Source: an uncultured Gammaproteobacteria bacterium (GTDB lineage: Bacteria > Pseudomonadota > Gammaproteobacteria > SZUA-229). Taken from it: a stretch of 64,000 bases of DNA. Shown in pieces: positions 5,276 through 55,863 of this stretch (position 1 is its first letter; each line of letters opens with the position of its first letter). A model generated the notes under the pieces. That model saw only the letters and a program-made list of their open reading frames with translations, did not search any database and was not told where the DNA came from. The stretch spans positions 12,302 through 76,301 of the forward strand of contig CAVRHW010000026.1 of NCBI GenBank assembly GCA_963721085.1. The letters are read 5' to 3'. The position numbers and the translations under genes were made by a program.

Positions 5276-5302
5276 ATTGATCATGAAAAGCGTTGTTTAA
5301 AA

Positions 5303-5327
5303 GAGGCCCTTCGGGGCCTCTTTTTTT
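5303..5327 (+). terminator. Rho-independent terminator after the fadL-like gene
   Basis: GAGGCCC-TTCG-GGGCCTC stem followed by T7. Confidence 0.8.
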
Positions 5328-5628
5328 AGCCGTGAACTTTTCAGCGAGGCTGGCCACTAAAGTCAGCGTCGAGCATGCATGATTAAGGTATCGAAAATCA
5401 GGGAAGTGTTTTTGTAAGGCGTGCAATGAGTTAGTGCTGTAAGGGCTTTATTATAAGCAAATCATAATAGACTAATAAAATGCTTAATGGCATCAATGTC
5501 TTGCATCTGCACTGCAATCTGCATTACATTACTCGACCGTTTCGCTGTTCAGGGGAGGATTATCTGTTGTCCAGATCATTCGTCAACCAGGAGCGGGAAC
5601 AAATGACATTAAACAGGAGAGTAGTAGC

Positions 5629-6555: not shown

Positions 6556-6578
6556 ATCTTTCACCACATAGCAAAAAA

Positions 6579-6604
6579 GACCCCGGCTTGCCCGGGGTTT
6601 TTTT
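6579..6604 (+). terminator. Rho-independent terminator
   Basis: ACCCCGG-CTTGC-CCGGGGT stem followed by T7. Confidence 0.8.
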
Positions 6605-6691
6605 GTATGTCTTTTGCGATATAGCATGTTTTGGTCGTTTCCAGATAAATAGTCGGTGAAATTCTTCTCCTAAACGTATAGACTTCACGGT

Positions 6692-8452: not shown

Positions 8453-8454
8453 TC

Positions 8455-8943
8455 ATGCGGCATATTATTTCTATTTTGATCGAAAACGAATCGGGTGCTT
8501 TGTCGCGTGTAGCGGGCCTGTTTTCAGCGCGTGGTTACAATATTGAATCACTGACTGTTGCGCCCACCGACGATGAGTCCTTGTCGCGTATGACGCTGGT
8601 GACTTCGGGCACTGACGAAATCATCGAACAGATCAGCAAGCAGCTCAATAAGCTGGTGGATGTGGTCAAGCTGGTGGATTTAACTGAATCACCTCACATC
8701 GAACGCGAACTGATGTTGATTAAAGTTGAAGCGGTGGCTGATACGCGCGAAGAAGTGATGCGCCTGGTGGATATTTTTCGCGGACGTATCATCGACGTGA
8801 CCGATACCAGTTATACCGTTGAGATAACCGGCAATGGAGACAAGCTGGATGCTTTTGTGCAGGCGCTTTCCAGTATCAGCATTCTCGAAGTCGTGCGCTC
8901 AGGTTTGCTGGGAATTTCGCGCGGCGAAAAATCGTTAAATTAA
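8455..8943 (+). CDS. ilvH: acetolactate synthase small (regulatory) subunit
   Basis: MRHIISILIENESGALSRVAGLFSARGYNIESLTV is an ACT-domain small subunit. The ATG lies 3 nt after the ilvI stop. Confidence 0.9.
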   Translation: MRHIISILIENESGALSRVAGLFSARGYNIESLTVAPTDDESLSRMTLVTSGTDEIIEQISKQLNKLVDVVKLVDLTESPHIERELMLIKVEAVADTREEVMRLVDIFRGRIIDVTDTSYTVEITGNGDKLDAFVQALSSISILEVVRSGLLGISRGEKSLN

Positions 8944-9025
8944 TATAAGTGTTTTACGTGGTGTGGTCGGGCAAACCTGAATGGTGGCTTGTTTTATTAC
9001 ACTGAAATATCAGATTTATTACTAA

Positions 9026-21701: not shown

Positions 21702-21733
21702 GTCATCCCCGAGTGTTTGTGTCGGGGATCCAT
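21702..21733. repeat. GTCATCCCC...GGGGATCCAT hairpin repeat, adjacent to element copy 1
   Basis: GTCATCCCCGA-gtgtttgtg-TCGGGGATCCAT. The same hairpin family occurs at 44020-44052, 45197-45227 and 41521-41595. Confidence 0.7.
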
Positions 21734-21774: not shown

Positions 21775-21964
21775 GGGCGAGTTACTTTTTCTCTACAGCA
21801 ACAAAAGTAACCAAAAAACGCCGCCCTACACAACTTGCCCTTCGGGTTCCCGATCCACAGCACTTTGCTAACGCGCCGGTTTGACGCGCTGTCCTGCGCG
21901 CAAACCTGAATCAGGCGTCCTGCCTGATTCGCGCTACCAAAGTGACTGTGGCTCGGCAAGCTGT
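21775..21964 (-). ncRNA. structured RNA candidate, copy 1 (divergent) of a three-copy family
   Basis: Same architecture as the copies at 44066-44301 and 45283-45479, with compensatory stem changes. Hairpins GAAUCAGGC-AGGAC-GCCUGAUUC and GGUUUG/CGCGC-AGGACA-GCGCG/CAAACC. Confidence 0.6.
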
Positions 21965-22048
21965 AAGGGGGAATTTAAAAACGCTTTTTTTAGAAATGTA
22001 ATAAATAAAGGTGGTGGAGGAAATCTATGGCTAACGTAACTTTATTTG

Positions 22049-24009: not shown

Positions 24010-24215
24010 CTAAAACCTGAAAGCAAAACCTGAAAAATTTGAACCACAGAGGCACAGAGAACACAGAGGAAACACAATTACTGTTAAAAGCTTTTACCCC
24101 AGAAATCTTTTCTCGGCGTCGTCTGCGTCTCCGCGGCTTCGCTTTATGGTTTTTTTTAACCCAGAAAGGTTTTCTCCGTGTTCTCTGTGCCTCTGTGGTT
24201 CAGCTTTTCTGTTTT
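24010..24215. repeat. MITE-like inverted-repeat element (CCACAGAGGCACAGAGAACAC family), copy A
   Basis: 32-nt arms at 24041-24072 (GAACCACAGAGGCACAGAGAACACAGAGGAAA) and 24170-24201 (its reverse complement with 2 mismatches). It abuts the valS stop. Confidence 0.8.
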
Positions 24216-24217
24216 TC

Positions 24218-34140: not shown

Positions 34141-35073
34141 GTGGCTGGTGTCATGTCCCGATTCGATCAGATAGCCGAACACGAACAAGCGCGTATCGAG
34201 CAGTTTTGTGACCATCTCTGGATGGAGCGCGGACTCAGTCAGAATACCCTCGCTGCATATCGAAATGATATTGCTGCCACTGCACAATATCTGCATCAGC
34301 ACGGTGTGAAACTGGAAAAGGCTAGCGCGATTGATTTGCAGAGTGTGCTGACAGGGATTTTTCAGGCGGGTGGAAAAACGCGTTCGGCAGCACGATTGCT
34401 GTCCAGTCTGCGTCGATTTTATCGTTATCTATTGCGCGAAAATGTAATCGCTCAGGATCCGACGCAATTGCTGGAATCCCCCAAAAGCGAACGCGCAATT
34501 CCGGCGACCCTGAATGAAACACAGATCGACTTATTGCTCGAAGCGCCGGATATCGAAACCGAGCTGGGTTTGCGTGATCGTGCCATGCTTGAATTGCTGT
34601 ATGCCACCGGCCTGCGCGTGTCCGAACTGGTGGGATTGCAGCTGATGCAGGTCGCACTCGACCCTGGGGTGCTGCGTGTTATAGGCAAAGGTGACAAGGA
34701 GCGCCTGGTGCCTGTCGGTGAAAATGCGTGCGACTATTTGCAGCGTTATTTGCACACCGCGCGCCCGGCCCTGATGCAAAACAGATCGCCCGTCGATGCG
34801 GTTTTTGTCACCCGGCGCGGCGCAGCCATGACTCGCCAGGCGTTCTGGTACATGATCAAGCGCTATGCCGCAAAGGCCACCATCTCACCGAGTGCATTAT
34901 CGCCCCATACTTTACGCCATGCTTTTGCCACGCATTTACTCAATCACGGTGCGGATTTGAGAGTGGTGCAAATGCTGCTGGGCCATTCTGATATTTCGAC
35001 CACCCAGATTTATACCCATGTCGCTGATCAGCGATTACGTGATATTTATCAGAAACACCATCCGCGTGCCTGA
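34141..35073 (+). CDS. xerD: site-specific tyrosine recombinase XerD
   Basis: RGLSQNTLAAYRNDI ... HTLRHAFATHLLNHGADLRVVQMLLGHSDISTTQIYTHV. Sits in the xerD-dsbC synteny. Confidence 0.9.
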   Translation: MAGVMSRFDQIAEHEQARIEQFCDHLWMERGLSQNTLAAYRNDIAATAQYLHQHGVKLEKASAIDLQSVLTGIFQAGGKTRSAARLLSSLRRFYRYLLRENVIAQDPTQLLESPKSERAIPATLNETQIDLLLEAPDIETELGLRDRAMLELLYATGLRVSELVGLQLMQVALDPGVLRVIGKGDKERLVPVGENACDYLQRYLHTARPALMQNRSPVDAVFVTRRGAAMTRQAFWYMIKRYAAKATISPSALSPHTLRHAFATHLLNHGADLRVVQMLLGHSDISTTQIYTHVADQRLRDIYQKHHPRA

Positions 35074-39461: not shown

Positions 39462-41357
<1,896 letters not shown>

Positions 41358-41367
41358 GATAAAAACG

Positions 41368-41647
41368 TTTTCACCACAGAGACACGGAGAACACAGAGGA
41401 AAGCGTTTTTGGGGTAAAAGCAAAGGCTAAAGCGAAAGACAAAAAATTTTCACCACAGAGACACAGAGAACACAGAGTAAAAGCAAATATATTTGTTAAA
41501 ACACAGTCGCACTCTAGTTCGTCATCCCCGCGAAAGCGGGGATCCATTGGTTTATATCAAGGAAGACACTGGATTCCCGCTTTCGCGGGAATGACACACC
41601 AGGAAATAAGATGTTTTCTCCGTGTTCTCTGTGCCTCTGTGGTTCAA
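41368..41647. repeat. MITE-like repeat cluster (same family as 24010-24215), copy B
   Basis: Direct arms at 41368-41402 and 41447-41482 (TTTTCACCACAGAGACAC(G/A)GAGAACACAGAG..). Inverted arm at 41614-41645 (TTTTCTCCGTGTTCTCTGTGCCTCTGTGGTTC, identical to the arm at 24170-24201). Confidence 0.8.
41521..41595. repeat. pair of inverted GTCATYCCCGCGAAAGCGGGRATCCA hairpins nested inside the MITE-like element
   Basis: GTCATCCCCGCGAAAGCGGGGATCCA at 41521-41546 and its inverted partner TGGATTCCCGCTTTCGCGGGAATGAC at 41570-41595. Confidence 0.75.
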
Positions 41648-41700
41648 GCTTTTAAGAGTTTTAGCTTTCAAGTAAAAAATATCAACACTGAATAAAAATT

Positions 41701-43955
41701 ATGACTGACCAGACCAAAATTGATTTTGAGCACATAGAACAGCAGCCGATGTCGGTGTTCACCGAGAGGGCCTATCTCGATTATTCGATGTACGTGATTC
41801 TCGACCGCGCCTTGCCGTTTATTGGCGATGGTTTAAAACCGGTGCAGCGGCGCATTATTTACGCGATGTCCGAGCTGGGTCTGTCGGCCGGCACCAAGCA
41901 TAAAAAATCGGCGCGCACCGTCGGTGACGTGCTGGGTAAATACCATCCCCACGGTGACAGCGCCTGTTACGAAGCCATGGTGCTGATGGCGCAGCCGTTT
42001 TCGTATCGTTATCCGCTGGTCGATGGCCAGGGCAACTGGGGTTCGCCGGACGATCCAAAATCCTTCGCTGCGATGCGTTACACCGAATCGCGGCTCGCGC
42101 CCTATGCCGAAACCTTATTGAGTGAACTGGGGCAGGGCACGGTGAAATGGACGCCGAACTTCGACGGTTCGCTGGAAGAACCCGAATGTTTGCCCGCGCG
42201 TTTGCCCAATGTATTGCTCAACGGCGGCACCGGTATCGCGGTGGGTATGGCCACCGATATTCCACCGCACAATCTGCGCGAAGTCGCCAGCGCCTGTGTG
42301 CATTTGCTGGATGATCCCAAGGCCACGCTCGCCGATATTTGTAAACACATCAAGGGCCCGGATTTTCCCACCGAAGCCGAGATCGTTACGCCGCGCGCCG
42401 ATATCAAAGAACTGTACAAAACCGGCCACGGCAGCATTCGCCAGACGGGCGCGTTACGAAATCGAACACGGTGATGTGATCATCACCGCGCTGCCGTACC
42501 AGGTCTCGGGCAATAAAATCCTGGAACAGATCGCGCAGCAGATGCTGGCGAAAAAACTGCCCATGGTCGAAGACCTGCGCGATGAATCCGATCACGAAAA
42601 CCCGACCCGCCTGGTGATCGTGCCGCGCTCCAACCGGGTCAACATCGACGAACTGATGAACCATCTGTTCGCCACCACCGATCTGGAACGCAGCTATCGC
42701 GCCAATCTCAATATGATCGGCATCAATGGCAAGCCGCAGGTGAAAGACCTGCGCAGCCTGCTGGAAGAATGGCTCAAGTTCAGAACCGTCACCGTGCGCC
42801 GTCGTCTGCAATGGCGGCTGGATAAAATTACCGCGCGCCTGCACATCCTCGAAGGCTTGCTGGTCGCGTTTTTGAATATCGACGAAGTCATTGCCATCAT
42901 CCGCGAAAACGACAAACCCAAACCGGTGCTGATGAAACGCTTCAAGATCACCGACATTCAGGCCGAAGCCATCCTCGAATTAAAACTGCGCCATCTCGCC
43001 AAACTCGAAGAAATGAAAATTCGCGGCGAGCAGGAAGAACTCGACGCGGAACGCAAATCACTGGAAGCGCTGCTGGCTTCGGCCAAACGCCTGAAAACCC
43101 TGATCCGCAAAGAAATCATCGCCGATGCCGAAAAATACGGTGATGATCGACGTTCACCCATCGTTGCACGCGAAGCTGCGCAGGCGATGTCGGAAACCTC
43201 GTTGATTTCCAGCGAAGCGATCACGGTTGTGTTATCCGCCAAAGGCTGGGTACGCGCGGCCAAAGGCCACGAAGTCGATGCCGCCAAACTGGGATACAAG
43301 TCGGGCGACTCCTTGCTCGCCACCGCCCAGGGCAAAAGCAATCAGCTCGCGGTGTTCCTGGATCGCAGCGGACGCGCTTACACGCTTGCCCGCGCACAAA
43401 CTGCCATCGGCGCGCGGCCAGGGTGATCCGCTCACCAGTTATTTCACCCCGCCTTCAGGCGCGCAGTTCGTGTCGGTGGTGATCGGTGAACCGGATGAAA
43501 TGCTGTTGCTCGCGAGCAACTTCGGTTACGGTTTTGTCGCCAAACTCGGTGATCTGCACGCGCGCAATAAAAACGGCAAGGCGATACTCAATGTCGGCAA
43601 GCAGGCAAAAGCATTACAGGCGGCAAAAATTTCCGATCTCGACAGCGACCGCATCGTCGCAGTCAGTTCGGAAGGCCACATGCTGGTCACACCCGTCGCC
43701 GATCTGCCGCAGATGGCCAAAGGCAAGGGCAACAAGATCATCAATGTGCCTTCGGCCAAACTCAAGTCCGGTGAAGAACTCATCACTGCGATGACCGTGG
43801 TGCCGGCCGAATCGAAACTGGTGGTGCACAGCGGCAAGAAGTTCAAGCAGATGAAACCGGCAGAGCTGGATGCGTTTGCAGGGGAGCGTGGGCGGCGTGG
43901 GCTGAAGTTACCGCAGGGCTATCGCAATGTGGACAGGTTTGAGGTGACGGATTAA
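41701..43955 (+). pseudogene. parC: DNA topoisomerase IV subunit A interrupted by two 1-nt insertions (about 42440 and 43388)
   Basis: Three consecutive +1 frames: 41701..42474 (..[16 protein letters not shown]..), the part of 42209..43426 from [30 protein letters not shown].., and the part of 43227..43955 from [19 protein letters not shown]... Colinear with ParC as I recall it. Confidence 0.9.
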
Positions 43956-44019
43956 CTGCACAGCAGCTAATCCGTCATCCCCGAATCGGACTAATTGGCT
44001 GGGATCGAATTGAACGTGT

Positions 44020-44052
44020 GTCATCCCGGTATGCTTTTTAGCCGGGATCCAT
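44020..44052. repeat. GTCATCCC...GGGATCCAT hairpin repeat, adjacent to element copy 2
   Basis: GTCATCCCGGtatgctttttagCCGGGATCCAT. Confidence 0.7.
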
Positions 44053-44065
44053 ATTTTTAATCATT

Positions 44066-44097
44066 CAAAATCTAAAAGCGCGGGTGGTTGACCCGCA
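44066..44097 (-). terminator. Rho-independent terminator (minus strand) at the end of element copy 2
   Basis: Minus strand reads GCGGGU-CAACC-ACCCGC followed by GCUUUUAGAUUUU. Confidence 0.6.
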
Positions 44098-44301
44098 GCA
44101 AGTCACTTTATTTTGCTTGCCCAAAGAAAAGTAACCAAAAGAAACGGCACCCCAACAGCTTGCCCCATGTAAAAAACACATGGGGTTCCCATGTCACAGC
44201 ACTTCGCTAACGCGTCGTCTCGATGCGCGTCCTGCGCACGAGACTCAATCGGGCGTCCTGCCCGATTGCCGCTACCGAAGCACTGCGACATGGCAAGCTG
44301 T
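44066..44301 (-). ncRNA. structured RNA candidate, copy 2, with its own promoter and terminator
   Basis: Minus-strand fold: P1 ACAGCUUGCC/GGCAAGCUGU; a 16-bp P2; hairpins CAAUCGGGC-AGGAC-GCCCGAUUG and GUCUCG/UGCGC-AGGAC-GCGCA/CGAGAC; hairpin CCCCAUGU-GUUUUUU-ACAUGGGG; a U-run; hairpin GUUACUUU/AAAGUGAC. Terminator at 44066-44097. Confidence 0.65.
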
Positions 44302-44307
44302 AAGGGG

Positions 44308-44336
44308 ATTTTAAAAACGCATGTTTTCAGAAGCAA
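44308..44336 (-). promoter_or_regulatory. sigma70-type promoter of RNA copy 2
   Basis: Minus strand: TTGCTT (44336-44331), 17-nt spacer, TAAAAT (44313-44308). The predicted start falls at the first base of P1. Confidence 0.55.
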
Positions 44337-44389
44337 AAACAAACAACTTATGCCGTCACGCCAGTATTTTTTTTGTTTTATGTTCAGTA

Positions 44390-44719
44390 TCAGGCAGCTT
44401 TTGATCTGGTAGAAATGGCTTTTGCCAGGTCTTTTTGCGAAGCGCCCAGTGCCAGCAAAGATTTGATGAGAAGATCGATTGAAACCGATGCGGCACCGGT
44501 CTCCATTTTCGCCACTCTGGACTGGCTGGATTTGATCATTTTTGCAAAAGCATCCTGACTCAAACGTTTACGTTTTCTCAACTCTTTAAGGCTGTGGCTC
44601 AGAGACATTTTCATTTCAATGAATGTTTCTTCTTCAGGAGTCAGGCCCAGGAAATCAGCAGCTGTGCCAACCTTCCAGCCTTTTGCTTCCAGCTTTTTAC
44701 GTTTGGTCTGTTTCATCAT
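44390..44719 (-). CDS. higA: HTH (XRE-family) antitoxin, HigA-like
   Basis: 109 aa: LSQDAFAKMIKSSQSRVAKMETG helix-turn-helix. Overlaps the toxin gene by 23 nt and lies downstream of it. Confidence 0.75.
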   Translation of the reverse strand: MMKQTKRKKLEAKGWKVGTAADFLGLTPEEETFIEMKMSLSHSLKELRKRKRLSQDAFAKMIKSSQSRVAKMETGAASVSIDLLIKSLLALGASQKDLAKAISTRSKAA

Positions 44720-45038
44720 AATCTCTCAATCTGTCTTTACATACATCGATGACATTTTTAGGTGTTTTAGCGGTTTTCTTTTCAAACACTTCAAGAATGA
44801 CTATTGCATCGGTATCAATTCTGTACACGATTCTCCATGTTACATTTCTATCTGTAATCCGAAGTTCATGGCACCGTTTTCCAATGACAGGCATTGGCCT
44901 GGATTGCGGCAGGCTTAATATCTCGCCAATTTGCAGCTTTCGCAGCAGAAAGCCAGCCTCAATACGGGCTGCAGGAGAAAAGGGAGGTGTCTTTATCTCA
45001 CCATGCAGCCAGACAACAGCCTTGTCTATTGGATCCAT
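44697..45038 (-). CDS. higB: RelE/ParE-superfamily toxin, HigB/Gp49-like
   Basis: 113 aa: VVWLHGEIKTPPFSPAARIEAGFLLRKLQIGE ... CHELRITDRNVTWRIVYRIDTDAIVILEVFEKKTAKTP. The toxin-first order is typical of higBA. Confidence 0.75.
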   Translation of the reverse strand: MDPIDKAVVWLHGEIKTPPFSPAARIEAGFLLRKLQIGEILSLPQSRPMPVIGKRCHELRITDRNVTWRIVYRIDTDAIVILEVFEKKTAKTPKNVIDVCKDRLRDYDETDQT

Positions 45039-45196
45039 AGTGGAAAAGTATATGTCAGATATGACATATTTTCAAGTATGCGGCGCAATAATCAACGGGC
45101 ATTGCGCCGCATCGATCGATCTGCTGTCATCCTCGAACGATTCTGTCGAAGATCAAGTGTAGGTTGGGGTGAGGTACACGACGATCCCAGCGTGTC

Positions 45197-45227
45197 GTCA
45201 TCCCGATACGCTTTTTGTCGGGATCCA
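45197..45227. repeat. GTCATCCC...GGGATCCA hairpin repeat, adjacent to element copy 3
   Basis: GTCATCCCGAtacgctttttgTCGGGATCCA. Confidence 0.7.
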
Positions 45228-45282
45228 TCCATGTTTAAATTCACACTTAAGGGCTCTTTGCGCGTGTTAAATCGCAGCACTG

Positions 45283-45479
45283 CGACTTTATTCTACAGCA
45301 ACATAAAAAGTAACCAAAAAAATGCCGCCCAAACAGCTTGTTCCATGCAAACAACGCATGGAATTCCCATGTCACAGCACTTCGCTAACGCGTCGTCTCG
45401 ATGCGCGTCCTGCGCACGAGACTCAATCGGGCGTCCTGCCCGATTGCCGCTACCGAAGCACTACGACATGGCAAGCTGT
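45283..45479 (-). ncRNA. structured RNA candidate, copy 3
   Basis: The core is nearly identical to copy 2. One P2 substitution (C to U on the minus strand) converts a C-G pair to U-G. Hairpin C is replaced by UUCCAUGC-GUUGUUU-GCAUGGAA. Confidence 0.6.
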
Positions 45480-45637
45480 AAGGGGAGTTAAAAAACGCGT
45501 GTTTTCAGAAGCAAAGATTGACAGCATTAATCTGCAGCCCAAGCTTTGGGGTTGGTAAAATCGTTATATCATTAAACCTTCACAAACAAGTCTCAGAGGG
45601 TTAAAGTTCCTTCTCATGCTTGTGTTAACCATAAGGA

Positions 45638-46073
45638 ATGTGTGCAGTGGGCCAGAAAACAATTAACAAGATAATTAGACTTCCACTCTATTTGCTAATC
45701 GCTGTATGCCTATATTCGTGCTCATCCAATATCGCGCCTCCAAAACCTCCGTATAGCTTAAGCTATCAGTTCTATACTGATAAAAACTATCAATATGTGT
45801 ATCGCTTAATCTTGAATAATGCTGACGCATGCTCAAAACAAGGCGTGATCTCAAAGTCTATTGCTGAAGGACAGCATTACAGTGATATAAAAGCGGGTGA
45901 TATATCAATTTCACTACGTGCTCCCTTTTGGGACATACACGCATATACGTGTAAAAATAGATACTGAAAACGGAAAAACAAAAGTATCAGTTTCAAATGA
46001 CTTCGAAGCCTGGGATGAGCTTGCCAAAGTTATTAAAGACTGGGTTGAAAATGAAACAATGTTTTGTCGATAA
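45638..46073 (+). pseudogene. small lipoprotein, probably extended by a frameshift near 45925
   Basis: Track ORF 45638..45967 has a lipobox (LYSCSS). The +1 frame stays open for 47 more codons in AT-rich DNA (..RVKIDTENGKTKVSVSNDFEAWDELAKVIKDWVENETMFCR) up to the TAA at 46071-46073. Confidence 0.45.
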
Positions 46074-46225
46074 GGCGAGATAATAATATGTTAAAAAAAG
46101 ACGGATTTATTTACACAAACGTTATGGCTACGAAAAATAAGACTGTCCCCATTAATTCATTGATTTATGTATCCCCGAAAACCCGGTCTTCGGTCTAATA
46201 CACAGTTAGGTAAAAAAGAGAAACC

Positions 46226-47086
46226 ATGCCTGAAAGTAATTCGCTAATAAATTTAGGTGATTTATCAAAGCCAGCAACTGTTTTGATAAAAAAAATATCT
46301 AATGCTATTGGCGTATTATATGAACCAAAACGCATTAAGAGTAAAGCAAAAGCAGTGGCTGAAGCGGATAAAATTAAAGCGTTAGCACAAATAGAAATTA
46401 GCGATATTGAACGCAGAGCATTTGAGCGTCTAATATATCAAGAAGGTCGAAAGCAAGAGAATATTGAAAGTATTACTGCACAGGCAGTGCAGGAGCTATT
46501 ACCTGAAGCCGAAGTTGAAGCACTAGAAGAAGATTGGCTCATCCACTTCTTCAAAAACTGTGAATCAATAACAGACAAAGAAATGCAATCTTTATGGGCT
46601 GCTTTATTAGCCAGGGAGGCATCAAAACCAGGGGTGATCTCTAAAAGAACCATTAACTTTATTACCTCCATGGATAAAAAGGATGCCGAATTGTTCACTA
46701 AGCTCAGTCAATTCGTATGGCTGATGGGTGATGCGCTTCCGCTAATTTTTGATGAATATCACAAAATATATAATAATGAAGGGGTTGATTTTAGCGCTCT
46801 TAAGCATTTAGATGATATAGGTTTAATTTCATTTGAGCCATTAGGTTATAAACGAATTAATTTAGATCAACATGCGCAGCTGTACTATTTTGGCGCACAT
46901 GTAAGAATTAAATTTAATAAAGCTCGTGATAATGAGCTTCAAACTGGTAAGGTTGTTTTTACACAAGCAGGCAAAGAATTATTTCCAGTGTGTGGCGCTA
47001 AGAAAAATAATAAGTATTACAAATATGTAATCGATAATTGGTCTAAACAAGGTTATGTGTTATCTGAAACATCGCCTAAGGAATAG
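46226..47086 (+). CDS. DUF2806-like protein
   Basis: 286 aa. The N-terminus LINLGDLSKPATVLIKKISNAIGVLYEPKRIKSKAKAVAEADKIKA resembles the DUF2806 family as I recall it. Not verified. Confidence 0.5.
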   Translation: MPESNSLINLGDLSKPATVLIKKISNAIGVLYEPKRIKSKAKAVAEADKIKALAQIEISDIERRAFERLIYQEGRKQENIESITAQAVQELLPEAEVEALEEDWLIHFFKNCESITDKEMQSLWAALLAREASKPGVISKRTINFITSMDKKDAELFTKLSQFVWLMGDALPLIFDEYHKIYNNEGVDFSALKHLDDIGLISFEPLGYKRINLDQHAQLYYFGAHVRIKFNKARDNELQTGKVVFTQAGKELFPVCGAKKNNKYYKYVIDNWSKQGYVLSETSPKE

Positions 47087-47277
47087 GTATTGGAATTCTG
47101 TAGAATTCTGGGGACACGATGCTTAATTCCGGCACCGCCGGAATGAAATTCTTTACTTTTGTTTCTGAGAAGTGCGCTTGTAATTCCCCTAATAATAGGG
47201 GACAGACCACGTTTTTCGGATAAATCCATTTAATAAACGTGGTATGCCCCTAATATTTAAGCAACCGAGAGGCTGTC

Positions 47278-47738
47278 GTGAAATTCCGTTTGAATCATGA
47301 ATACATGAGCGAGAGCTACGACCAATCTCGGCGCTATGGTAAACTTTCTTCTCATTGAAAGCATTACTGGTTTCAGTTTCGTCTTTCTTGGAATAGGGCT
47401 TTATATCTATGTAAATGGTAAAACTCTAATACCGTTCGTGCTTATCGCAATTGGCATGTTCGAGTTATTCAGTAATCGCATAAAGAAGTATTTTTGGCTT
47501 CGTCGTCATTCAAAGGGCAAGCTAATGAATGCCGAGATCGAGCTAGAAATTTCGGACGTCAGGGATTGATAGTGCTGGGCCTTTCTCCAATGGGCACTTT
47601 GAATGGAATGGCATTGAAAAGGTAATTCGCACACCAAAAGGCATTCTTGTGTGGCCGCAGAAAGGAATGTATTGGTATATTCCTGAAAGCATTGCAGGGA
47701 AACAAATAATTGATTTCATACAAGAAAAAGTTTCTTAA
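47278..47738 (+). pseudogene. YcxB-like membrane protein split over three frames
   Basis: (V)KFRLNHEYMSESYDQSRRY, then VNFLLIESITGFSFVFLGIGLYIYVNGKTLIPFVLIAIGMFELFSNRIKKYFWLRRH.., then GIDSAGPFSNGHFEWNGIEKVIRTPKGILVWPQKGMYWYIPESIAGKQIIDFIQEKVS. Shifts lie near 47335 and 47560. Confidence 0.5.
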
Positions 47739-47854
47739 CCAGCCGCTTGTTCGAGCGCAAACTAGAAAACCGGGGTCAAACCCCAGTTTTCGCTAATATT
47801 GCCAAGTTGACACATGCGGAATAAATAGGAATAGAAATGTGACTGAGGGATTAA

Positions 47855-49027
47855 ATGATGTTCAATTCTAAAATATGGTCAATGGATAACTTATTCGCCG
47901 TCTTTTTTCGTCCGATTCTGTACATTGCTTTGTTCATGTGCGTGGCATGTGCCAACACTTGGGCTGCAACGATTGAACAGCAAACTATCAACCACCTGAA
48001 TCATATTAGAAATATAAAAACTGATATGGGTGCGGAAGCTACTAAGGTATATAACAGACAGATGGACGATGCCTGGCGATTCTTCCAGAAGAATAAGGCA
48101 CAGGTTCTCCCTGTTTTGCGTGGTCAGCTCAAAACCGAGTTGAAGAGTAGCAAGCCAAACGATTTAATTCTTCTCGATATCGGGTACTTTGTGTATCAGA
48201 ACGATGGAGCAGAGGGCAAAACGATCGGTGCAGATGCTCTTTCAAAGTTGAATCCTGGCGCCAAAATAGTTCAGGCAAATTACAGGGAGCTGTTTGACTT
48301 CGCATATGCCATGGCACGAGATCATGACTCACGTGTATTGCCCATAATTGAAAGGAACTTCCTTCCATCAGACCAGGAAATTTTCATACCTCAACACGCT
48401 TTAAAACTGGACGGCACGCTCATTTGTGTGTTTTTGTATGGCACATATGGACCCGAGTCTGAGGATATTCTGCGCGCTAAACTTGTGGACAAACCGGTCA
48501 GGCGCAGGGCATTAGAACTTTTAGTATGGCTTGGTTCGCCTGCATCGCTTCCTGATGTGCGGAATGTCCTGGAGTCGTCACCCGATTATGAAACGTTTTT
48601 ACGTGTCACTTCCTATATGATGCGGGCGGCTGGCCCCGCTGGTCGTACCTTTATGCTTGGTTTGTCACCGAAAACTCTTGATACTCAGTCACGTCGATAC
48701 CTTGCAAAGATCCATTCGGCAATCCAGGAGACCTCATTTGAATCTATAAAGGCTTCATTGGCGCGGGTCCCTGGTGATAAAAACCTGTCAGATGCCGAAG
48801 TGAAAGCGCGTCTCAGTGCTATGCTAAAAAACTATGGTAAGGATGATCGTACGAGTCCTGTGGCAATTCTGAATTCCGGTCTACCATCGGAGTATCTCAT
48901 TAACATGCTCATGAAGATTCGCAGTCGCATATTGTACCGTTTGTCAGATGAAGGACTCGGCGATGTAGAAGTAACCAATTTTCTTATCAATGCTCTACGT
49001 TACCGAGAGAAGAATAAAGCTCGATAA
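47855..49027 (+). CDS. secreted protein of unknown function
   Basis: 390-aa ORF with an N-terminal hydrophobic signal ending ANTWAAT. Largely helical-looking. No motif recognised. Confidence 0.55.
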   Translation: MMFNSKIWSMDNLFAVFFRPILYIALFMCVACANTWAATIEQQTINHLNHIRNIKTDMGAEATKVYNRQMDDAWRFFQKNKAQVLPVLRGQLKTELKSSKPNDLILLDIGYFVYQNDGAEGKTIGADALSKLNPGAKIVQANYRELFDFAYAMARDHDSRVLPIIERNFLPSDQEIFIPQHALKLDGTLICVFLYGTYGPESEDILRAKLVDKPVRRRALELLVWLGSPASLPDVRNVLESSPDYETFLRVTSYMMRAAGPAGRTFMLGLSPKTLDTQSRRYLAKIHSAIQETSFESIKASLARVPGDKNLSDAEVKARLSAMLKNYGKDDRTSPVAILNSGLPSEYLINMLMKIRSRILYRLSDEGLGDVEVTNFLINALRYREKNKAR

Positions 49028-49071
49028 AGGCGACGGGGGATTAAAAGACAGCTCCTCCATCATCATTTTCA

Positions 49072-49344
49072 GTGCGAGTGGATATGGACATATTACAGGT
49101 AAAATGTGGGCACTGTGGTGCGATTGCAAATCATGCAGGGCAGTGTACTTATTGTCATAAAGACCTGGGTAGTGTATCTAAAGCTATAATGTCTGCTGCT
49201 CTTGCTTCGTTTGCCTTATCTCTCATCTGGATAGGCATAGCTGTTATTTTTCAGATTGAGTTCGCATGGATTTCTATGACTTTTGGACTACTGATCAGCG
49301 CTGCCGTAATTGTATTTTCACGTGGTTCGGGTCCTAAGTATTAA
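49072..49344 (+). CDS. zinc-ribbon protein with two TM helices
   Basis: CGHCGAIANHAGQCTYC followed by two hydrophobic helices. Same architecture as 22505..22879. Confidence 0.5.
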   Translation: MRVDMDILQVKCGHCGAIANHAGQCTYCHKDLGSVSKAIMSAALASFALSLIWIGIAVIFQIEFAWISMTFGLLISAAVIVFSRGSGPKY

Positions 49345-49380
49345 GAAAGGGGACGCTAAGAAAGGGGACGCTACCCTTTA

Positions 49381-49962
49381 ATGAAAAAATGTGGAGAGAA
49401 TTCAGCATTGAAGCCGTTTAAAACATTCTTATTTATTTTTCCGCTTACAATTTTCTCATCTGTCTCTAACGCTGCATCTGGTTATATCGATGTCGGGATA
49501 CATTTTGGAGGCGCAAAAGTTGACAGAATTCAACTTGCAGGCGGCAATGGTGGTACCGATATTACCTCTGGTGAAGTGCTTTCTGCCTCGCTTGGCGCAT
49601 TATTCCGGCCAACGCTTAATACTGACATACAAATTGGGGGCGGGAAACGAAGCAACACGGCTGTGGGTCAGAATGGTGATGTAACATGGCAATCATATTT
49701 TCTTGAAACCTCGGCCCATTACATTATCAGGAATTTTCGTCTGGGCGGTGGCCTGCAGTATTATATAAACCCTGAATTACGTGGCGGAACCACTGATCGA
49801 AACTTCGATAACTCCATAGGCCCTTTTGTTTCATGTGAACTAGAGGTTTATCAAGGTCTTTATGCGGGATTGAGACTAACGCACGAAAAGTACCAGGATT
49901 CAGCAACAAAGGAGATTGTGTCGGGCAGTACTATTGGTGTTACTCTGACTTTAACATATTAG
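49381..49962 (+). CDS. outer-membrane beta-barrel protein
   Basis: Signal peptide, alternating beta-strand pattern, and a C-terminal ..GVTLTLTY aromatic terminus. Confidence 0.6.
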   Translation: MKKCGENSALKPFKTFLFIFPLTIFSSVSNAASGYIDVGIHFGGAKVDRIQLAGGNGGTDITSGEVLSASLGALFRPTLNTDIQIGGGKRSNTAVGQNGDVTWQSYFLETSAHYIIRNFRLGGGLQYYINPELRGGTTDRNFDNSIGPFVSCELEVYQGLYAGLRLTHEKYQDSATKEIVSGSTIGVTLTLTY

Positions 49963-49988
49963 CCCGGAATAAAAGGGTTCGGTGACAA

Positions 49989-50609
49989 ATGATAATCACT
50001 TATAAGGGAAAGCATATGAAACTGTTAAAAATATCAGGACTGGTCTTTAGTATCGCTGTCATCGTGTCTTGCGTTCCTATGCGGCGCATGCCCGAAATGA
50101 AGCTTCCTCCGGAACCCATTGCATTATCTGATTACTATTTTACCCCGTTAAATGAGCGGGGCTGGGTTGAGATTGGCGAGAATGCGTACAATGTGGCACT
50201 GGTTAAGCAAGGAAAAGAAAAGGATGAAACGTATGCTATCCAGACTATGCGATTTAAATTACCCGCGTTTAAGAACCAGGCAGACTTTGTTCGCCTGATA
50301 AAGAGTGGTCAGGCGGCAGATACCAGCTCGACACGTTTCACAGTCATAAAACATGATGTAACTGACTATACAAGGCTAAAAAGTAATTGCGCTATATCAA
50401 ATATGGTAACCAAAGACCATAACGCCATTAAGCGATCGGGAAAAACTGGAGATATGATACTGGAAGCGCTTGTGCTTACCTGCGCACTCCCAAAAGATAA
50501 GAGTACAGGTATCGGTGTTGTCTATTCACACAGATATTATCCGGGCCACAATGATAGTGACTTTGCAGAAAAAGGCATGACCGTCTTGAGTAGTGTTAAA
50601 TTTCAATAA
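49989..50609 (+). CDS. lipoprotein of unknown function
   Basis: MKLLKISGLVFSIAVIVSC lipobox. The start is probably the internal ATG at 50016. Confidence 0.55.
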   Translation: MIITYKGKHMKLLKISGLVFSIAVIVSCVPMRRMPEMKLPPEPIALSDYYFTPLNERGWVEIGENAYNVALVKQGKEKDETYAIQTMRFKLPAFKNQADFVRLIKSGQAADTSSTRFTVIKHDVTDYTRLKSNCAISNMVTKDHNAIKRSGKTGDMILEALVLTCALPKDKSTGIGVVYSHRYYPGHNDSDFAEKGMTVLSSVKFQ

Positions 50610-50702
50610 AGAGATAGAAGAACATCCAGGCTAGATATAAGTTTTTGCTAATACTTTAGATGGAACTGGTATCTGATCCACGATTCTATAAGGGAGAAGA
50701 TT

Positions 50703-51582
50703 ATGTTTAAACGATTCATAGATGGAATGGTTTTTGGTGCGGGGTTTAGTGCGGCATTTGTTGTGGTCTGGACTGTTGCGATTTATTATATTTTACCCGG
50801 CGTTATTGAAAAGAGAATTCACTCCGCAACTTCTGGCGGAATCCATGAAGCAGGCCATGAAATACGTACCGTTCCTGCAATAAATCTGCCTGATAAATTT
50901 CTTGATACAACCAGCGTTACCTCGGGTGATTTCAAAAGAGGAGGTGGTGTTCTCGCTGGCGGTAACGGCAGGATAATAGGTGGAGCAAGTGCTAATGGAA
51001 AGCCCGTGTCGGGATTAAAATTCGGCTGGCATTGAACGGTAGTGTATATAGTCAGTGGGCTACTACTGATGGTGAAGGAAAATATGCTGTTCATGTCCCA
51101 TATGGCGAGTACGTCATAAATGGTTATGAATTTGATCAGGAAGCAGCTGACAAATATCTGGCCAATAAAATTATTTCTCCACAAAGTTCATATTCGAGCA
51201 GCAGATTTAAGGTGTCCTCGGCGTCTACTGGACGCGGGCTGGATTTTCGATTTATAAACCCGGTTATCAAGAAGTTCAAAAGCAATATATTCAAGAATGG
51301 TGATGACGTCATACTTGAATGGGAGGATTATCCGGGTGCGTCAACATATACCGTTCAGGTACGTGAAAAGCCGGATCCTTATACATGGAGCAATGTGACA
51401 CTTTTAAATGGTCGGAAAGGCCGGAGGTGCTAGAGCCTCGCATAAACCTGAAAGATTATGATGTGCATTTAACGCCAGGGAAGTATTACTCTGTGGAAAT
51501 TACCGCCAAAGGAAAAGATAAAGAAATACTATCCAAAAGTGCGGATATTTATTCTGGGTATGATTTCGAGATTGTTAAATAA
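50703..51582 (+). pseudogene. membrane-anchored protein with carboxypeptidase-regulatory-like and Fn3-like domains, split by two 1-nt deletions
   Basis: TM helix (50703 frame). Then GKPVSGLKIRLALNGSVYSQWATTDGEGKYAVHVPYGEYVINGYEF (shift near 51017, in an A-run). Then ..LEWEDYPGASTYTVQV.. and DTFKWSERPEVLEPRINLKDY.. (shift near 51395). Confidence 0.5.
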
Positions 51583-51821
51583 TATGGAAGCATGAATTAA
51601 AGGGGTCGGTACGCCATTGAGTATATAGATGCCAGCGCCGATTGTGACGAAATTGACTCTGGTATTTCAGGCCAAAGTTTCATATGATTCGAAAGGACGG
51701 GCTGGGATTCGATCCCGATTTATATGTTGCAGAGCTGCTCACTACTTGTTCCGCTAGTTGTTTATTGGGATTGAGCGTACTACTGGAACTTGCTCTCGAC
51801 AGGATATCAAGGAGGCTGGTA

Positions 51822-51964
51822 TGGGCAGATTCAATCTTAGGCGTGTTTACGTTCTTGCGGTTATCCTCGCGCTGACACTGCCTGCAGTCCAGTGTGCTGG
51901 AGACAGTTCATCAAGTTCATCGAATAGAGCCACAGTGAATGTTCATGCGGTGGTTCTGAAATGA
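51822..51964 (+). CDS. small lipoprotein
   Basis: MGRFNLRRVYVLAVILALTLPAVQCAGDSSSSSS has a lipobox. Its stop overlaps the next start (ATGA). Confidence 0.4.
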
Positions 51965-54067
51965 AAATGCCAATATGCCTGTCTTTGGTTCTTCTGGTGT
52001 TCAGCTTTTTGGCTCGTGCCGCCACCAACGAGGCCAGCTTTACGCCCGATAGCATCATCAAGCCAATTTTCGAAGTGGGGCTGGCCAATTCAACAAGCTC
52101 GACTCGCTCGGCACTTTATACCTGTTCAGGCACGACTCCCGGTGAGTGTGAAGTAGAAATCACAAACCAGGCCGCGCTCAACGCGCTGTTTGCGGGTGCT
52201 TCGGTTGCTCCAGGAACTTACGACCAGATGTATGTACGGCATTGTACAACCGGGACGGGTTACACCGCCAGGCTGCGTGGCAGCGTTTCAATTGGGGCGG
52301 TGCCGACAACTTATTACACGACTTCGGGTGCGGACCCGCTATCGACTTCCAGTGCCAGTCTTGATTATGTAACGGTTCCTTATCAGGGCTGCGAGACGAC
52401 TTACCATCTGGCAAGTCCGCTCACTGTTTCTGCTGGAGATACAGTCAATTTAAGTCTTTTTTTCTCTCACCTGAATATTGCCTGGGCCCGACTTGGTGCC
52501 GAAACAATTCCCAGTGGCTGTACACAGAACGCTGGAATGACCCAGTCAGTGTGCATGGCTTATCCAGACATTGTTCCTTATGTGGGCAGCAACACGCCAA
52601 CTCTGGAGCGGTACTATGTGATTGAGGACTCTGTCGTCAATCCCACTTTTGAGTCTGTAGGGGCGATGGTGTTGCTTGTGACTGATTCGGTCACGGGAAA
52701 TGTGCTCGCTGGTTTTACCCGGCGTTTATTTAGTGACAGCTCTGTTCCGCCTTCGGCGAACTATGATACGCCACTGAAGCAGATCACAGATAATCATGAT
52801 GGAACCTGGCGCCTTGAGAACTATGGATCGACGGCCACCGGGACCGGCTATATTGTCTTCCCCGCTTTCCGGAGAAGCAGTCATGCTTCATCATATCTAA
52901 CAGAAAGCGGAACCTCGATTGCGTATCATGCCTATCGAGACATCAATTCAGAACTGGATTCCTGCCCTTCGGGACCTCTTTTCACTGCTTATCCCATCAC
53001 AGTGGATACCAGTGGAACACCGACCATGACAGAATTTGTAAGCATGACGCCGCTTGGAAACCTGAACCCTTCCAGCCATGTGTTTCCGACCGACCATATG
53101 TACATCAATGTGAATGAGGTCGGTGGTGTACCGCAGACCGGCCATGTCTATCTGCCGGGGGATGCCTATGTCACCCAGATGGAACAGAAGTCGTACACTG
53201 CAGGACCGCTTACAGGTGTTACGGAATACAAGGTAGGGTTCAGTTCGTGCAAAGAGTTTTCGTTCTACTTTGATCACCTGGAGTCGCTGTCTACAGATCT
53301 TCAGACGATCTGGGATGCCAATGGACCCGCAACGGATTGTCAATCCTATACAACCGGGCCCAGTACGCTTACCACCTGTTCGATGTCGATGAAGTCCTAT
53401 CTCACGGCAGGCACTTACATGGGAACAGCTGGAAATCCTGCTGGAATTTATGGCGTAGATCTGGGCGCGCATGATTCACGCGTGACACCCATCGTATTCG
53501 CTAACAATGCACGCTATGGTTCGTCACCAGATGGAATGGATCGGATGCATACGGTTTGCCCGATTGATTACTTCGATACTTCAATGAGGGATACGCTGAG
53601 GACTTTCTTTAAAGCCTGGGACGGAACACCGAGAACAGCGCCTCCGGTCTGCGGAACGATTGATCAGGATCTCGCTAGCACAGTTCAAGGAAACTGGTTT
53701 GAAACACCAGACTCAACTTTCTCCCCTGAAGATCCAAATCTTGCTCTTGTACATGACAATATTCGATCCGAGCATTCCTGTGTTTTCGGTGGGAACAACG
53801 CTGACAGGACTTCCAGGTGGCGCTTACCGATTTGTTCCCTCAGCAGGAACGACTAGCCAGGTGAATCGAGATTTTGGACTGGTCACCGACACAGGCATTT
53901 ACTGCTATGAAAATCTAACCGATGGCAGCACCGCTGTGGCCAACACCGTAATCCTGTTACAGAGAACCGATCCGGACACGCTCACTATCGAGAAGCAATC
54001 GGCCAGCAACTGCGCAGCACTTGCTACTCCATGGGCCTTTAGTTCGCCTCTCACGTATACCCGCTGA
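51961..54067 (+). pseudogene. large (about 700 aa) secreted protein of unknown function with one frameshift near 53765
   Basis: Signal MKMPICLSLVLLVFSFLARA. The 51961..53856 frame is continued in the +1 frame by DPSIPVFSVGTTLTGLPGGAYRFVPSAGTT... up to 54067. Confidence 0.55.
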
Positions 54068-54194
54068 AACCACCAGAACAATGGTGGCGTTATCCTTTAA
54101 CCGAATTCCGGAAACAGTTTACTTAATTGCTTCCTGGATACGTGCATTATAATTAAGTAAACTATCCTCGTATCCCTCGTTTTAGGAGACTTGC

Positions 54195-54755
54195 GTGTTG
54201 ATACGTCTGTTTATAGTCGCCATACTTTGTGCGCCTGCCGCTGCCTGGGCATTCATCAAGCCAATTCGGGTTCTCGCTCCTGAATGGAATGGGGTTTCAT
54301 GCATCAATGACACTATATGTACGGATGATATGTCCCACTACCAGGAAGCGGCCAGATTGTACGATGAAGCTTTGCATTATGTCGATTCATCGGTCGGCGT
54401 AATCAAGAGTCAGCCACGCGTAATTTTCTGTTACTCGGATACCTGTTCTCGATCCTTTGGGTTGGGAAAGCGCTCAGCCTTAACGATTGGTCACTTTGGA
54501 ATTATCATAAGTCCCCGTGCATGGAAGGAGTACTATGTGCGTCACGAAATGATTCACCATCTTCAACATGAAAAATTAGGTATGCTCAAGGTATGGCGCG
54601 ATCCCAGGTGGCTCATCGAAGGCATGGCGTACTCTCTCAGTAAAGACCCGAGACCAAAGCTCTCTGAGCCCTTTGAGCAATACCGTACTCAATTCAATCA
54701 ATGGTATGGGCGGGTAAAAAAAGGCCATCTATGGGAGCAGGCAAGTAAAATTTAA
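54195..54755 (+). CDS. secreted HExxH protein (putative zinc metallopeptidase)
   Basis: Signal peptide and YYVRHEMIHHLQHEKLG ... WLIEGMAYSL. Confidence 0.5.
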   Translation: MLIRLFIVAILCAPAAAWAFIKPIRVLAPEWNGVSCINDTICTDDMSHYQEAARLYDEALHYVDSSVGVIKSQPRVIFCYSDTCSRSFGLGKRSALTIGHFGIIISPRAWKEYYVRHEMIHHLQHEKLGMLKVWRDPRWLIEGMAYSLSKDPRPKLSEPFEQYRTQFNQWYGRVKKGHLWEQASKI

Positions 54756-54987: not shown

Positions 54988-55863
54988 TTACAGATAGGCA
55001 TTTATTTCTTCACCGGGGTTAGGCAGGCCAGCAATACGCCAGGCTTTGCTGCCGTTGTTATCGAATAGACGTTCCATGCAGTAGTGGTCTGGCTGTTGTG
55101 CGGATTCGCATAATTCCTTGAAGTTGGGTACGTGCTGGTGTGTCTGATAGTACTGACGTAATGCGTAGATGACTTGCCAGCGTGCTTCGTTTAATTCGTC
55201 CAGGCCTTCCTGCTTCGCCAGCCACTGTGCGATTCGTTCGTTCCATTCATCGGGGTTTTGTAGAAAGCCTTCAGTATCCATTTCTACATCGGGATTAAAA
55301 TTGTCAAGGTCATCACTCGGGATCTGCTGCACCTGTCTGTGAACACCTGAAACGTCCTGCAGCATTTTTTCAATAGCTTCACAAAATGCATTCAGATCAT
55401 TCGGGCTACGTGAGGTGATCAGGTTGTCGTCCAGCACCATTTCTTTATCCACCCAGTTTGCGCCCGCATTGATCAGGTCGGTTTTGATCGACGGCCATGA
55501 GGTCAGTGTTCGGCCTTCAAGACTATTGGCTTCGATCAGTAATTGCGGGCCGTGACAGATTGCGGCAACCGGTTTATGGCTGTTCATAAAAGTACGGACA
55601 AACGAGACGGCATCCTGGTCGATGCGCAGGTGGTCAGGGCTGTAACCGCCCGGGATGAGCAGGGCGTCATACTTGTTCGCATCGGCACTATGGGTAGAGA
55701 CATTGATTTTTGCAGCCGACTTTCTGTTTTTGCCGTCTATTCTGCTTTCGGCGTGTGTCCCTATTACGTCAATTACATGTCCGGCCTGTTTGAGGCGGTC
55801 ATATGGCACCTGGTATTCAGCATCTTCAAAGTCTTTGTCTAAAATGATTGCAACTTTGGCCAT
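54988..55863 (-). CDS. fusion protein: DJ-1/PfpI (YhbO-like) domain plus DsrC/TusE-like domain lacking the C-terminal Cys
   Basis: N-terminal half: KVAIILDKDFEDAEYQVPYDRLKQAGH ... KPVAAICHGPQLL. C-terminal half: DTEGFLQNPDEWNERIAQWLAKQEGLDELNEARWQVIYALRQYYQ ... WRIAGLPNPGEEINAYL. Confidence 0.75.
   Translation of the reverse strand: MAKVAIILDKDFEDAEYQVPYDRLKQAGHVIDVIGTHAESRIDGKNRKSAAKINVSTHSADANKYDALLIPGGYSPDHLRIDQDAVSFVRTFMNSHKPVAAICHGPQLLIEANSLEGRTLTSWPSIKTDLINAGANWVDKEMVLDDNLITSRSPNDLNAFCEAIEKMLQDVSGVHRQVQQIPSDDLDNFNPDVEMDTEGFLQNPDEWNERIAQWLAKQEGLDELNEARWQVIYALRQYYQTHQHVPNFKELCESAQQPDHYCMERLFDNNGSKAWRIAGLPNPGEEINAYL

Follow-up and report, generated by a model that had tools for sequence, protein, structure and literature searches.

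A higBA toxin-antitoxin module between two predicted TwoAYGGAY-class small-RNA genes downstream of parC, with possible repeat-anchored exchange between lineages

How does a toxin-antitoxin operon come to lie between two direct copies of one structured repeat, immediately beyond a housekeeping gene? The question is raised by the higBA locus downstream of parC in a 64,000-nt stretch of DNA from an uncultured gammaproteobacterium (the window, positions 12302-76301 of contig C26 in assembly G000; the labels G, C, and L denote genomes, contigs, and loci or contigs, respectively). A sequence-only reading had described this locus as a higBA pair bracketed by near-identical hairpin-plus-RNA units, and had proposed that the unit could mediate the capture or exchange of accessory cassettes. 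We find that each repeat reads as a small-RNA gene followed by repetitive extragenic palindromic (REP)-like hairpins, that higBA is barely diverged between lineages whose flanking RNA and parC sequences differ clearly, and that variable, low-GC DNA begins at the 5' ends of these RNA genes. With moderate confidence, we favor an exchange of the toxin-antitoxin module that would be anchored in the repeats, the step around higBA being most likely a product of recombination. The genes at issue, with their predicted signals, are as follows.

45486-45514, minus strand: promoter-like element of small RNA copy 3 (TTGCTT, 17 nt, TTAACT), in register with the element of copy 2.
45281-45486, minus strand: small RNA copy 3 (w3), 233 bits with covariance model R1 and 36.6 bits with Rfam model RF01731.
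45047-45075, minus strand: predicted higBA promoter (TTGAAA, 17 nt, TATACT), with 10/12 consensus matches in the promoter scan.
44697-45038, minus strand: higB toxin, 113 aa, Gp49/RelE-ParE superfamily (Pfam PF05973, 1.1e-11).
44390-44719, minus strand: higA antitoxin, 109 aa, Xre-type helix-turn-helix (Pfam HTH_3, 1.2e-10; PDB 6af3_B, a HigA antitoxin, 1.2e-5).
44308-44336, minus strand: promoter-like element of small RNA copy 2 (TTGCTT, 17 nt, TAAAAT), agreeing with the consensus at 8/12 positions; read by eye and below the promoter scanner's threshold.
44104-44308, minus strand: small RNA copy 2 (w2), 227.3 bits with R1 and 37.4 bits with RF01731 (E = 7.5e-4), convergent with parC.
44079-44097, minus strand: intrinsic terminator-like hairpin (GCGGGTCAACCACCCGC followed by a T run), found by the terminator scan at copy 2 alone.
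21778-21971, minus strand: small RNA copy 1 (w1), 179.2 bits with R1, with a REP-like hairpin at 21703-21730 and three small unannotated open reading frames (ORFs) on its 5' side.

When aligned from 44350 down to 44015 and from 45529 down to 45192, respectively, copies 2 and 3 are identical in 286 of 346 columns (83%) and share a fully identical core of 99 nt (44186-44284 = 45364-45462), from which a 96-nt probe has exactly two matches where shuffles lead one to expect 0. The units, each of ~335 bp, stand in tandem as direct repeats 1.18 kb apart, and higB and higA are all that lies between them, as the sequence-only reading had it. Its description of the copies as near-identical is borne out for the core and fails outside it, where they differ at ~17% of positions, compensatory changes included (for example, CCCCAUGUG/CACAUGGGG vs UUCCAUGCG/CGCAUGGAA). 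Because the difference is of this size and in part compensatory, we regard the copies as old paralogues and not as a fresh duplication, so that a recent doubling of the unit can be set aside. The hairpins GTCATCCC..GGGATCCAT that had been read on the plus strand do adjoin each copy (44020-44052 and 45197-45228); the functional strand of the unit, however, is the minus strand, on which the covariance model scores copies 2 and 3 at 227-233 bits, compared to 14-24 bits on the plus strand.

To describe the structure, eleven RNA copies from the genus were aligned on the window's minus strand, yielding a five-helix structure of 60 pairs with a basal stem of 21 pairs. Here, 96.8% of cells pair (32-45% in slid controls), double changes are found in 21 of the 60 pairs (1-6 in slid controls), and the observed covariation score is reached by 0/500 shuffles. 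Many of the G-U pairs are compatible with the minus strand only and, across all three copies in the window, R1 puts the minus strand at 179-233 bits and the plus strand at 14-34 bits; from these G-U pairs and this asymmetry, we read the unit as an RNA on the minus strand, and each repeat is thus a predicted small-RNA gene on the same strand as higBA. The minus-strand fold of copy 2 has an energy of -122 kcal/mol (z = -10.5). In order of transcription, the unit consists of the promoter-like element, an RNA of ~205 nt with two AGGAC-loop hairpins on a long basal stem, a third hairpin, a 3' hairpin, and GTCATCCC..GGGATCC hairpins downstream. The TTGCTT-17 nt-TAAAAT/TTAACT element is kept in register ahead of w2 and w3, and the RNAs would be transcribed discretely from the minus strand. 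Small ORFs inside the repeat (such as 44191-44412) were considered as coding sequence and ruled out, since the differences between the copies are compensatory in the helices. The genome of G000 contains eight copies or fragments of the RNA in total, among which w2, w3, and the copy c21 share an identical core that the other copies lack.

As to family membership, an Rfam scan at gathering thresholds gave no match in the window, and a permissive scan (1.8 kb) found the TwoAYGGAY motif (RF01731) at 37.4 bits for copy 2 and 36.6 bits for copy 3, below the gathering score of 43 and with E about 1e-3. Copies in related genomes that are matched by R1 score 46.7-67.4 bits with RF01731, above the gathering score, and the RNA family is therefore continuous with TwoAYGGAY. 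From these scores and the loop sequences, the window copies are assigned to TwoAYGGAY as a variant with AGGAC loops, in the extended Pseudomonadota form: their loops read C-AGGAC-G, which retains the GGA core with one base fewer than AYGGAY, and AUGGAU loops are found in copy c10 and in the orthologue of w1 in the congener G002. The motif was described by Weinberg et al. in 2010 (PMC2864571), and a preprint of September 2026 (10.64898/2026.09.22.753630) has set out an extended architecture in Pseudomonadota with many copies per genome, divergent doublets, and REP arrays downstream, proposing Csr/Rsm binding and leaving a "mobile-element-like" expansion unexplained; neither paper reports an association with neighboring genes or evidence of recombination. 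The present RNAs have the same two adjacent GGA-loop hairpins on a long basal stem, further hairpins, REP hairpins downstream, multiple copies (8 matches in G000 and at least 25 in relatives), and frequent pairing, with doublets in G001 and G060. They differ in their 5-nt AGGAC loops and their scores of 36.6-37.4 bits, and in that the pair studied here is tandem instead of divergent and has a toxin-antitoxin operon in between. Within the taxonomic family, R1 has matches in 82/97 genomes and 18/19 genera, and some genomes carry at least 25 copies. Each RNA carries two GGA loops ~31 nt apart (more in copies with a 75-nt insert), csrA is present in G000 (C38:2858-3013) and in 68/97 genomes of the taxonomic family, and the RNAs would probably bind CsrA/Rsm-type proteins through their GGA loops, as has been proposed for the class.

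Turning to the operon itself, higB is the first gene and overlaps higA by 23 nt, an order, overlap, and pair of folds that are those of HigBA systems. The promoter encloses a perfect 8+8 palindrome, ATATGTCAnnnnTGACATAT (45050-45069), which lies between the hexamers, is conserved in the metagenomic contigs L172 and L173, and is a probable HigA operator. We read higBA as a self-contained type II toxin-antitoxin module that probably regulates itself. The module looks like DNA of foreign origin that was exchanged recently. There are thousands of HigB homologues with a PF05973 domain, and those in the species-representative genome collection are at most 74% identical and come from many phyla; we found no other record of the exact HigB protein, and no higB in four other species of the genus. 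The RNA does not follow these homologues: R1 had 0/50 matches at HigB-homologue loci of the species-representative collection, and none in the contexts of the 83-85% identical HigB relatives L174, L177, L178, and L179. That higBA would stabilize the adjacent island, as the sequence-only reading had offered as an alternative, is plausible.

The palindromes found around the units are as follows.

43974-44006: REP-like hairpin A' (GTCATCCCC..GGGATC), just past the parC stop codon (pattern scan C26:56276-56307).
44020-44052: REP-like hairpin B' (GTCATCCCGG..CCGGGATCCAT), 3' of small RNA copy 2 (repeat family D3, pattern scan).
45082-45112: hairpin H (GCGGCGCAAT..ATTGCGCCGC), whose counterpart in G001 lies directly upstream of the single RNA gene.
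45128-45158: REP-like hairpin A'', resembling hairpin A of G001.
45197-45228: REP-like hairpin B'', 3' of small RNA copy 3.

REP hairpins are thus found 3' of w1, w2, and w3, and likewise of the copy c25a, and a pattern scan counts ~20 REP-like hairpins in the G000 assembly. REP and REPIN elements are associated with REP-associated tyrosine transposases (RAYTs). The hairpins described here resemble such elements in being short, GC-rich palindromes (GTCATCCC..GGGATC) dispersed between genes, here attached 3' of the RNA, and differ from them in that G000 has only ~20 and that no Y1 transposase was found there.

Evidence on the origin of higBA comes from related metagenomic lineages; a protein search returned HigB at 97-98% identity on short metagenomic contigs. 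The contigs L171 and L172, from two assemblies, are identical to each other over 840 nt and share with the window the gene order higB, higA, RNA, REP hairpins, parC. Between higB and the -10 element of the RNA, they match the window at 729/736 positions (99.0%, 7 mismatches); identity then falls to 90-93% in the RNA and to 75% in the REP tail, and parC matches at 960/1055 positions (91.0%, 95 mismatches), giving a Fisher p of 1.8e-15 for the mismatches of the module against those of parC. As the parC of L171/L172 is 91% identical to that of G000 and that of G002 alike, these contigs represent a lineage of their own within the genus. Next to higBA, the RNA copies show divergence on a par with that of the housekeeping flank. 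We note that the RNA basal stem of L171 is chimeric, its 5' and 3' strands belonging to different variant types and so forming mismatches, and that there is a 75-nt insert in its hairpin 1. The contig L173 covers the other side: a w3-like RNA (92.9%) stands upstream of higB, followed by other REP hairpins; from hairpin H through higB to halfway along higA, identity is 97.8%, and the sequences diverge thereafter. The barely diverged segment can be delimited as follows.

~44310-45118, minus strand: higBA module, 97.8-99.0% identical in related metagenomic lineages with flanks at 75-93%, bounded on one side by the 5' end of copy 2 and on the other by the block of hairpin H and REP hairpins below copy 3.

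Identity steps at the RNA 5' end and at the REP block are accordingly seen in independent contigs. In L173 (1682-2306), higA ends after ~64 codons and the sequence runs on into a Fur-family-like gene; either higB would lack an intact antitoxin here, or the junction stems from a rearrangement or from the assembly.

Comparison of the parC-downstream locus between congeners, which the sequence-only reading had called for, shows that one of the two RNA copies occurs at this position without higBA. In G001, which lacks higBA, parC is followed by REP hairpins A and B, then by a single convergent RNA copy (78.6 bits), and beyond it by hairpin H and a methyltransferase gene; a hairpin homologous to A' follows parC in both G001 and L076, and the G001 hairpin that corresponds in position to B' shares 94% identity with it. 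On the metagenomic contig L076, parC precedes two REP hairpins, after which a convergent RNA copy is represented by its 3' end, and L115, L130, and L131 have an opposite-strand RNA copy directly downstream of parC. Considering these same-position copies in G001, L076, L115, L130, and L131, we take copy 2 to be the resident gene. The parC-proximal copy of G001 (L018, G001:C38 1269-1465) retains the outer scaffold (5' end, hairpin 3, 3' hairpin, and tail), and its inner two-hairpin core is replaced by unrelated sequence. Synteny with G004 ends at the end of parC and resumes ~22.7 kb later (window coordinate ~66.7 kb, past the window end), the corresponding gap in G004 being 8 kb.

This variable, low-GC DNA begins at the 5' end of the RNA genes, a boundary that recurs at three loci. 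On the RNA's 3' flank, w1 and its orthologue in G002 share 89% identity. Homology ends exactly at the RNA 5' end, and the upstream position that is taken by three small minus-strand ORFs beside copy 1 is occupied in G002 by a large repeat-protein gene; in this orthologue, hairpin 1 is also exchanged for an AUGGAU type. The intergenic site between dsbD and trx in another genus of the taxonomic family is empty (77-200 bp) in four species, occurs elsewhere as a divergent RNA doublet without cargo, and is occupied between the two RNA 5' ends by a Tae4-family gene with two small ORFs in G060, and by vapBC with DJ-1 and another gene in G057. Tandem RNA pairs are also found in G004, bracketing an opposite-strand oxidoreductase gene, and in G002:C52, where the copies abut without cargo. 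The order of genes and then element that had been pointed out for copy 1 does recur, at w1 itself and at L175. Counter-examples are the G004 pair and the copies that lie between housekeeping genes, which in some cases form pairs ~10 kb apart with such genes in between.

Taking these comparisons together, our preferred account is that the resident copy 2 converges on parC, that higBA sits in variable DNA starting at the RNA 5' ends, and that its arrival and spread would have proceeded by homologous or homology-facilitated recombination after DNA uptake. The dispersed and conserved RNA/REP units may have served as portable homology arms, so that the repeats would both mark and promote exchange with no dedicated attachment site. 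Recombination between diverged lineages, with resident RNA/REP units as the source of homology, suits the evidence best, and the mosaic copies, with their swapped hairpins and the core shared by w2, w3, and c21, agree with it. The idea that the unit mediates cassette capture or exchange is thereby retained in part, as the units edge variable low-GC DNA and higBA shows an identity step; its site-specific form is not supported, as no integron integrase was found in the 76%-complete assembly and the only full-length tyrosine recombinase found is XerD (34141-35073), 9 kb from the higBA locus. Several points weigh against this account or its parts. The identity step is a single donor-recipient comparison in which L171 and L172 are identical and possibly stem from one sample, short-read assemblies can contain chimeric joins at repeats, and the left edge of the module falls at the hairpin/REP block and not within an RNA copy. 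In addition, the dsbD/trx site carries lipoprotein genes and no RNA in three species (L187-L189), and in G063 a lipoprotein gene lies on the 3' side of the RNA doublet; with cargo both lacking the RNA and on its 3' side, the RNA is not required for variability. As regards the proposed CsrA role, the co-occurrence of csrA and the RNA is uninformative; seven genomes that are at least 90% complete have the RNA with csrA not detected.

The same observations allow the competing explanations to be weighed. A tandem RNA/REP pair could already have been present after parC, with higBA inserted by an unrelated illegitimate recombination event and the RNAs being passive neighbors, which we consider rather unlikely. 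The RNA family does occupy many intergenic regions, housekeeping ones included, and the cargo-free tandem copies of G002:C52 and the RNA-free variable sites L187-L189 are what one would expect of passive neighbors, as is, by way of a weak hint, a 5-nt direct repeat (TATGC, 44349-44353 and 45077-45081) that flanks the module and could be microhomology or a target duplication; against it stand the identity steps, which in independent contigs fall together with the RNA 5' end and the REP block, the three loci at which variable DNA is bounded by the RNA 5' end, and the chimeric RNA stem of L171. Were the RNA units, alone or paired, instead the ends of a nonautonomous mobile element, moved in trans by a transposase such as a REP-associated Y1 enzyme with higBA as cargo, the empty, doublet, and doublet-plus-cargo states of the dsbD/trx site, the REP hairpins at the outer ends of the units, and the mobile-element-like expansion and divergent doublets noted in 10.64898/2026.09.22.753630 would all be accommodated. 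Y1 transposase genes (PF01797) are moreover present in 82/97 genomes of the taxonomic family, all four congeners included, yet none was found in the 76%-complete G000, and their presence does not track that of the RNA across the taxonomic family. The copies at the present locus are direct and not inverted, a precise target-site duplication is not definable, and the RNA copies beside higBA are diverged like parC and therefore did not travel with the module, which makes this explanation distinctly improbable.

The closest match to the cassette array suggested by the sequence-only reading would be an integron-like system, with the hairpin + RNA unit as the site of a site-specific recombinase. Direct, co-oriented repeats, the recurring order of genes and then element, and a fold that is conserved as its sequence varies would suit such a system, and chromosomal integrons typically contain toxin-antitoxin cassettes that bring their own promoters (PMC4032106), including the higBA, parDE, and relBE cassettes of Vibrio (PMC4032106, PMC4537255), which share with this locus a self-promoted higBA, direct structured repeats, variable DNA, and a possible stabilizing effect on the DNA nearby. 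Nevertheless, no integron integrase scored above its cutoff in G000 (76% complete), where the PF00589 matches are XerD (TIGR02225, 389 bits, with the integron models far under their cutoffs) and two fragments; the locus has two units only, and each is an RNA gene of ~335 bp with a promoter-like element and a branched five-helix fold matching an RNA family, in contrast to attC sites of 60-140 bp. An attC site is an imperfect palindrome of 57-141 bp with R''/L''-L'/R' boxes and no gene function, a description that the ~335-bp RNA gene does not fit, as judged without a formal R/L-box search. Copies also occur singly between housekeeping genes and as divergent doublets, and the G-U pairs and strand asymmetry fit an RNA; we regard an integron-like origin as extremely improbable. 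The arrangement could, alternatively, reflect functional coupling, in which transcription reads through from higBA into copy 2, or from copy 3 into higBA, and the RNA and the toxin-antitoxin pair are co-regulated. All three genes are on the same strand, no terminator separates the higA stop codon (44390) from the promoter-like element of copy 2 (44336), the canonical terminator belongs to copy 2 alone, and copy 3 is without a T-run terminator before higB. Coupling is still quite improbable, given that higBA has a strong predicted promoter of its own with an operator-like palindrome, that HigB homologues occur elsewhere without the RNA, and that other RNA copies have unrelated neighbors. With these alternatives considered, repeat-anchored exchange between lineages resembles the minimal mobile elements and repeat-mediated exchange, by homologous recombination, of naturally transformable bacteria such as Neisseria (PMC3787668, PMC3082526): there, too, lineages trade an accessory module at a fixed chromosomal site with conserved sequence on either side, insert and flanks are set apart by an identity step, and no dedicated recombinase takes part. 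It would differ in that the arms here are a dispersed small-RNA gene and REP hairpins instead of housekeeping genes.

The broader setting of the locus is that of a variable region in a draft genome. Assembly G000 comprises 41 contigs and 2.35 Mb with a GC content of ~51% and a completeness of 76%, and GC, at 57% across parE and parC, is down to 36-46% in the stretch from 44 to 52 kb. A search for a tRNA or tmRNA gene that might have been an island target found none. The principal genes around the locus are listed below.

39474-41357: parE, upstream of the higBA locus.
41701-43955: parC, directly upstream of the higBA locus.
46226-47086: DUF2806/Abi_alpha-like gene, in the low-GC stretch.

In the window, two single-base frameshifts, one near 42445-42455 and the other near 43386, distribute parC among three reading frames. 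Each of its pieces is 94-96% identical, as protein, to the intact ParC of a relative, and the frameshifts are probably an assembly consensus error rather than the mark of a pseudogene; they are also a warning of 1-nt indels elsewhere in the assembly. The spacer between parE and parC (41362-41653) is occupied by an inverted-repeat element (CACCACAGAGACACGGAGAACACAGAGG...) beside a REP hairpin pair at 41514-41602. An element of the same CACCACAGAGACACGGAGAACACAGAGG type is found at G000:C28:67008-67374, an intergenic site that has three RNA copies in G001; a clean empty site for this three-RNA cluster (G001:C56) was not found in G000, where the different repeat occupies the site. Within the low-GC DNA from 45638 to 54755 (36-46%), there are about ten ORFs without a Pfam match, several with signal-peptide-like N-termini. 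Further along, a 291-aa protein (54988-55863, minus strand) fuses a DJ-1/PfpI domain to a DsrC-like domain, and a repeat of ~200 bp at 24010-24217 has dozens of copies in the congener G002.

A number of further observations concern the RNA copies outside the higBA locus. A module of ~75 nt made up of small hairpins, two of them with GGA-containing loops, is inserted at varying places among the RNA copies, namely in hairpin 1, after hairpin 3, or in the 3' hairpin, as seen in L171 (796-872), the C25 copies, G003:C170, L076, and G062 (L184). It also stands apart from the RNA on contigs C27, C19, C5, C30, and C38 of G000, and looks like a tiny insertion element that supplies GGA hairpins. Transposase genes adjoin two of the copies: one of the IS110 family lies directly upstream of the promoter-like element in G000:C21:108586-110001, and one of the IS30 family is adjacent to the copy in G000:C10:76484-78759, with both family names assigned from sequence motifs alone. 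Contig C25 of G000 (1-9000) contains a large inverted duplication, with dinB-like and NUDIX genes on both arms, near the center of which are two convergent RNA copies (3963-4165 on the plus strand and 5260-5465 on the minus strand).

The RNA class, the REP hairpins, and higBA are each already known; what is new is the identity step that surrounds higBA, together with the recurrence of variable DNA at the 5' end of the RNA. Extending this from one locus to many, it is conceivable, if doubtful, that TwoAYGGAY RNA genes with REP tails form a general, recombinase-independent platform for gene capture in Pseudomonadota, in which cargo such as toxin-antitoxin pairs, type VI secretion effector-immunity genes, and other accessory genes would be exchanged at the RNA 5' end or between paired copies, with the RNA units acting as portable homology arms or as the target of another insertion activity. 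Should this not be the case, the locus is an ordinary toxin-antitoxin pair among common intergenic repeats. TwoAYGGAY RNAs are widespread, sometimes very numerous, and without an established function, and if the pattern does extend to other loci, their genes would mark small-scale gene flux and might even promote it, in a role comparable to that of tRNA genes in genomic islands and of attC sites in integrons.

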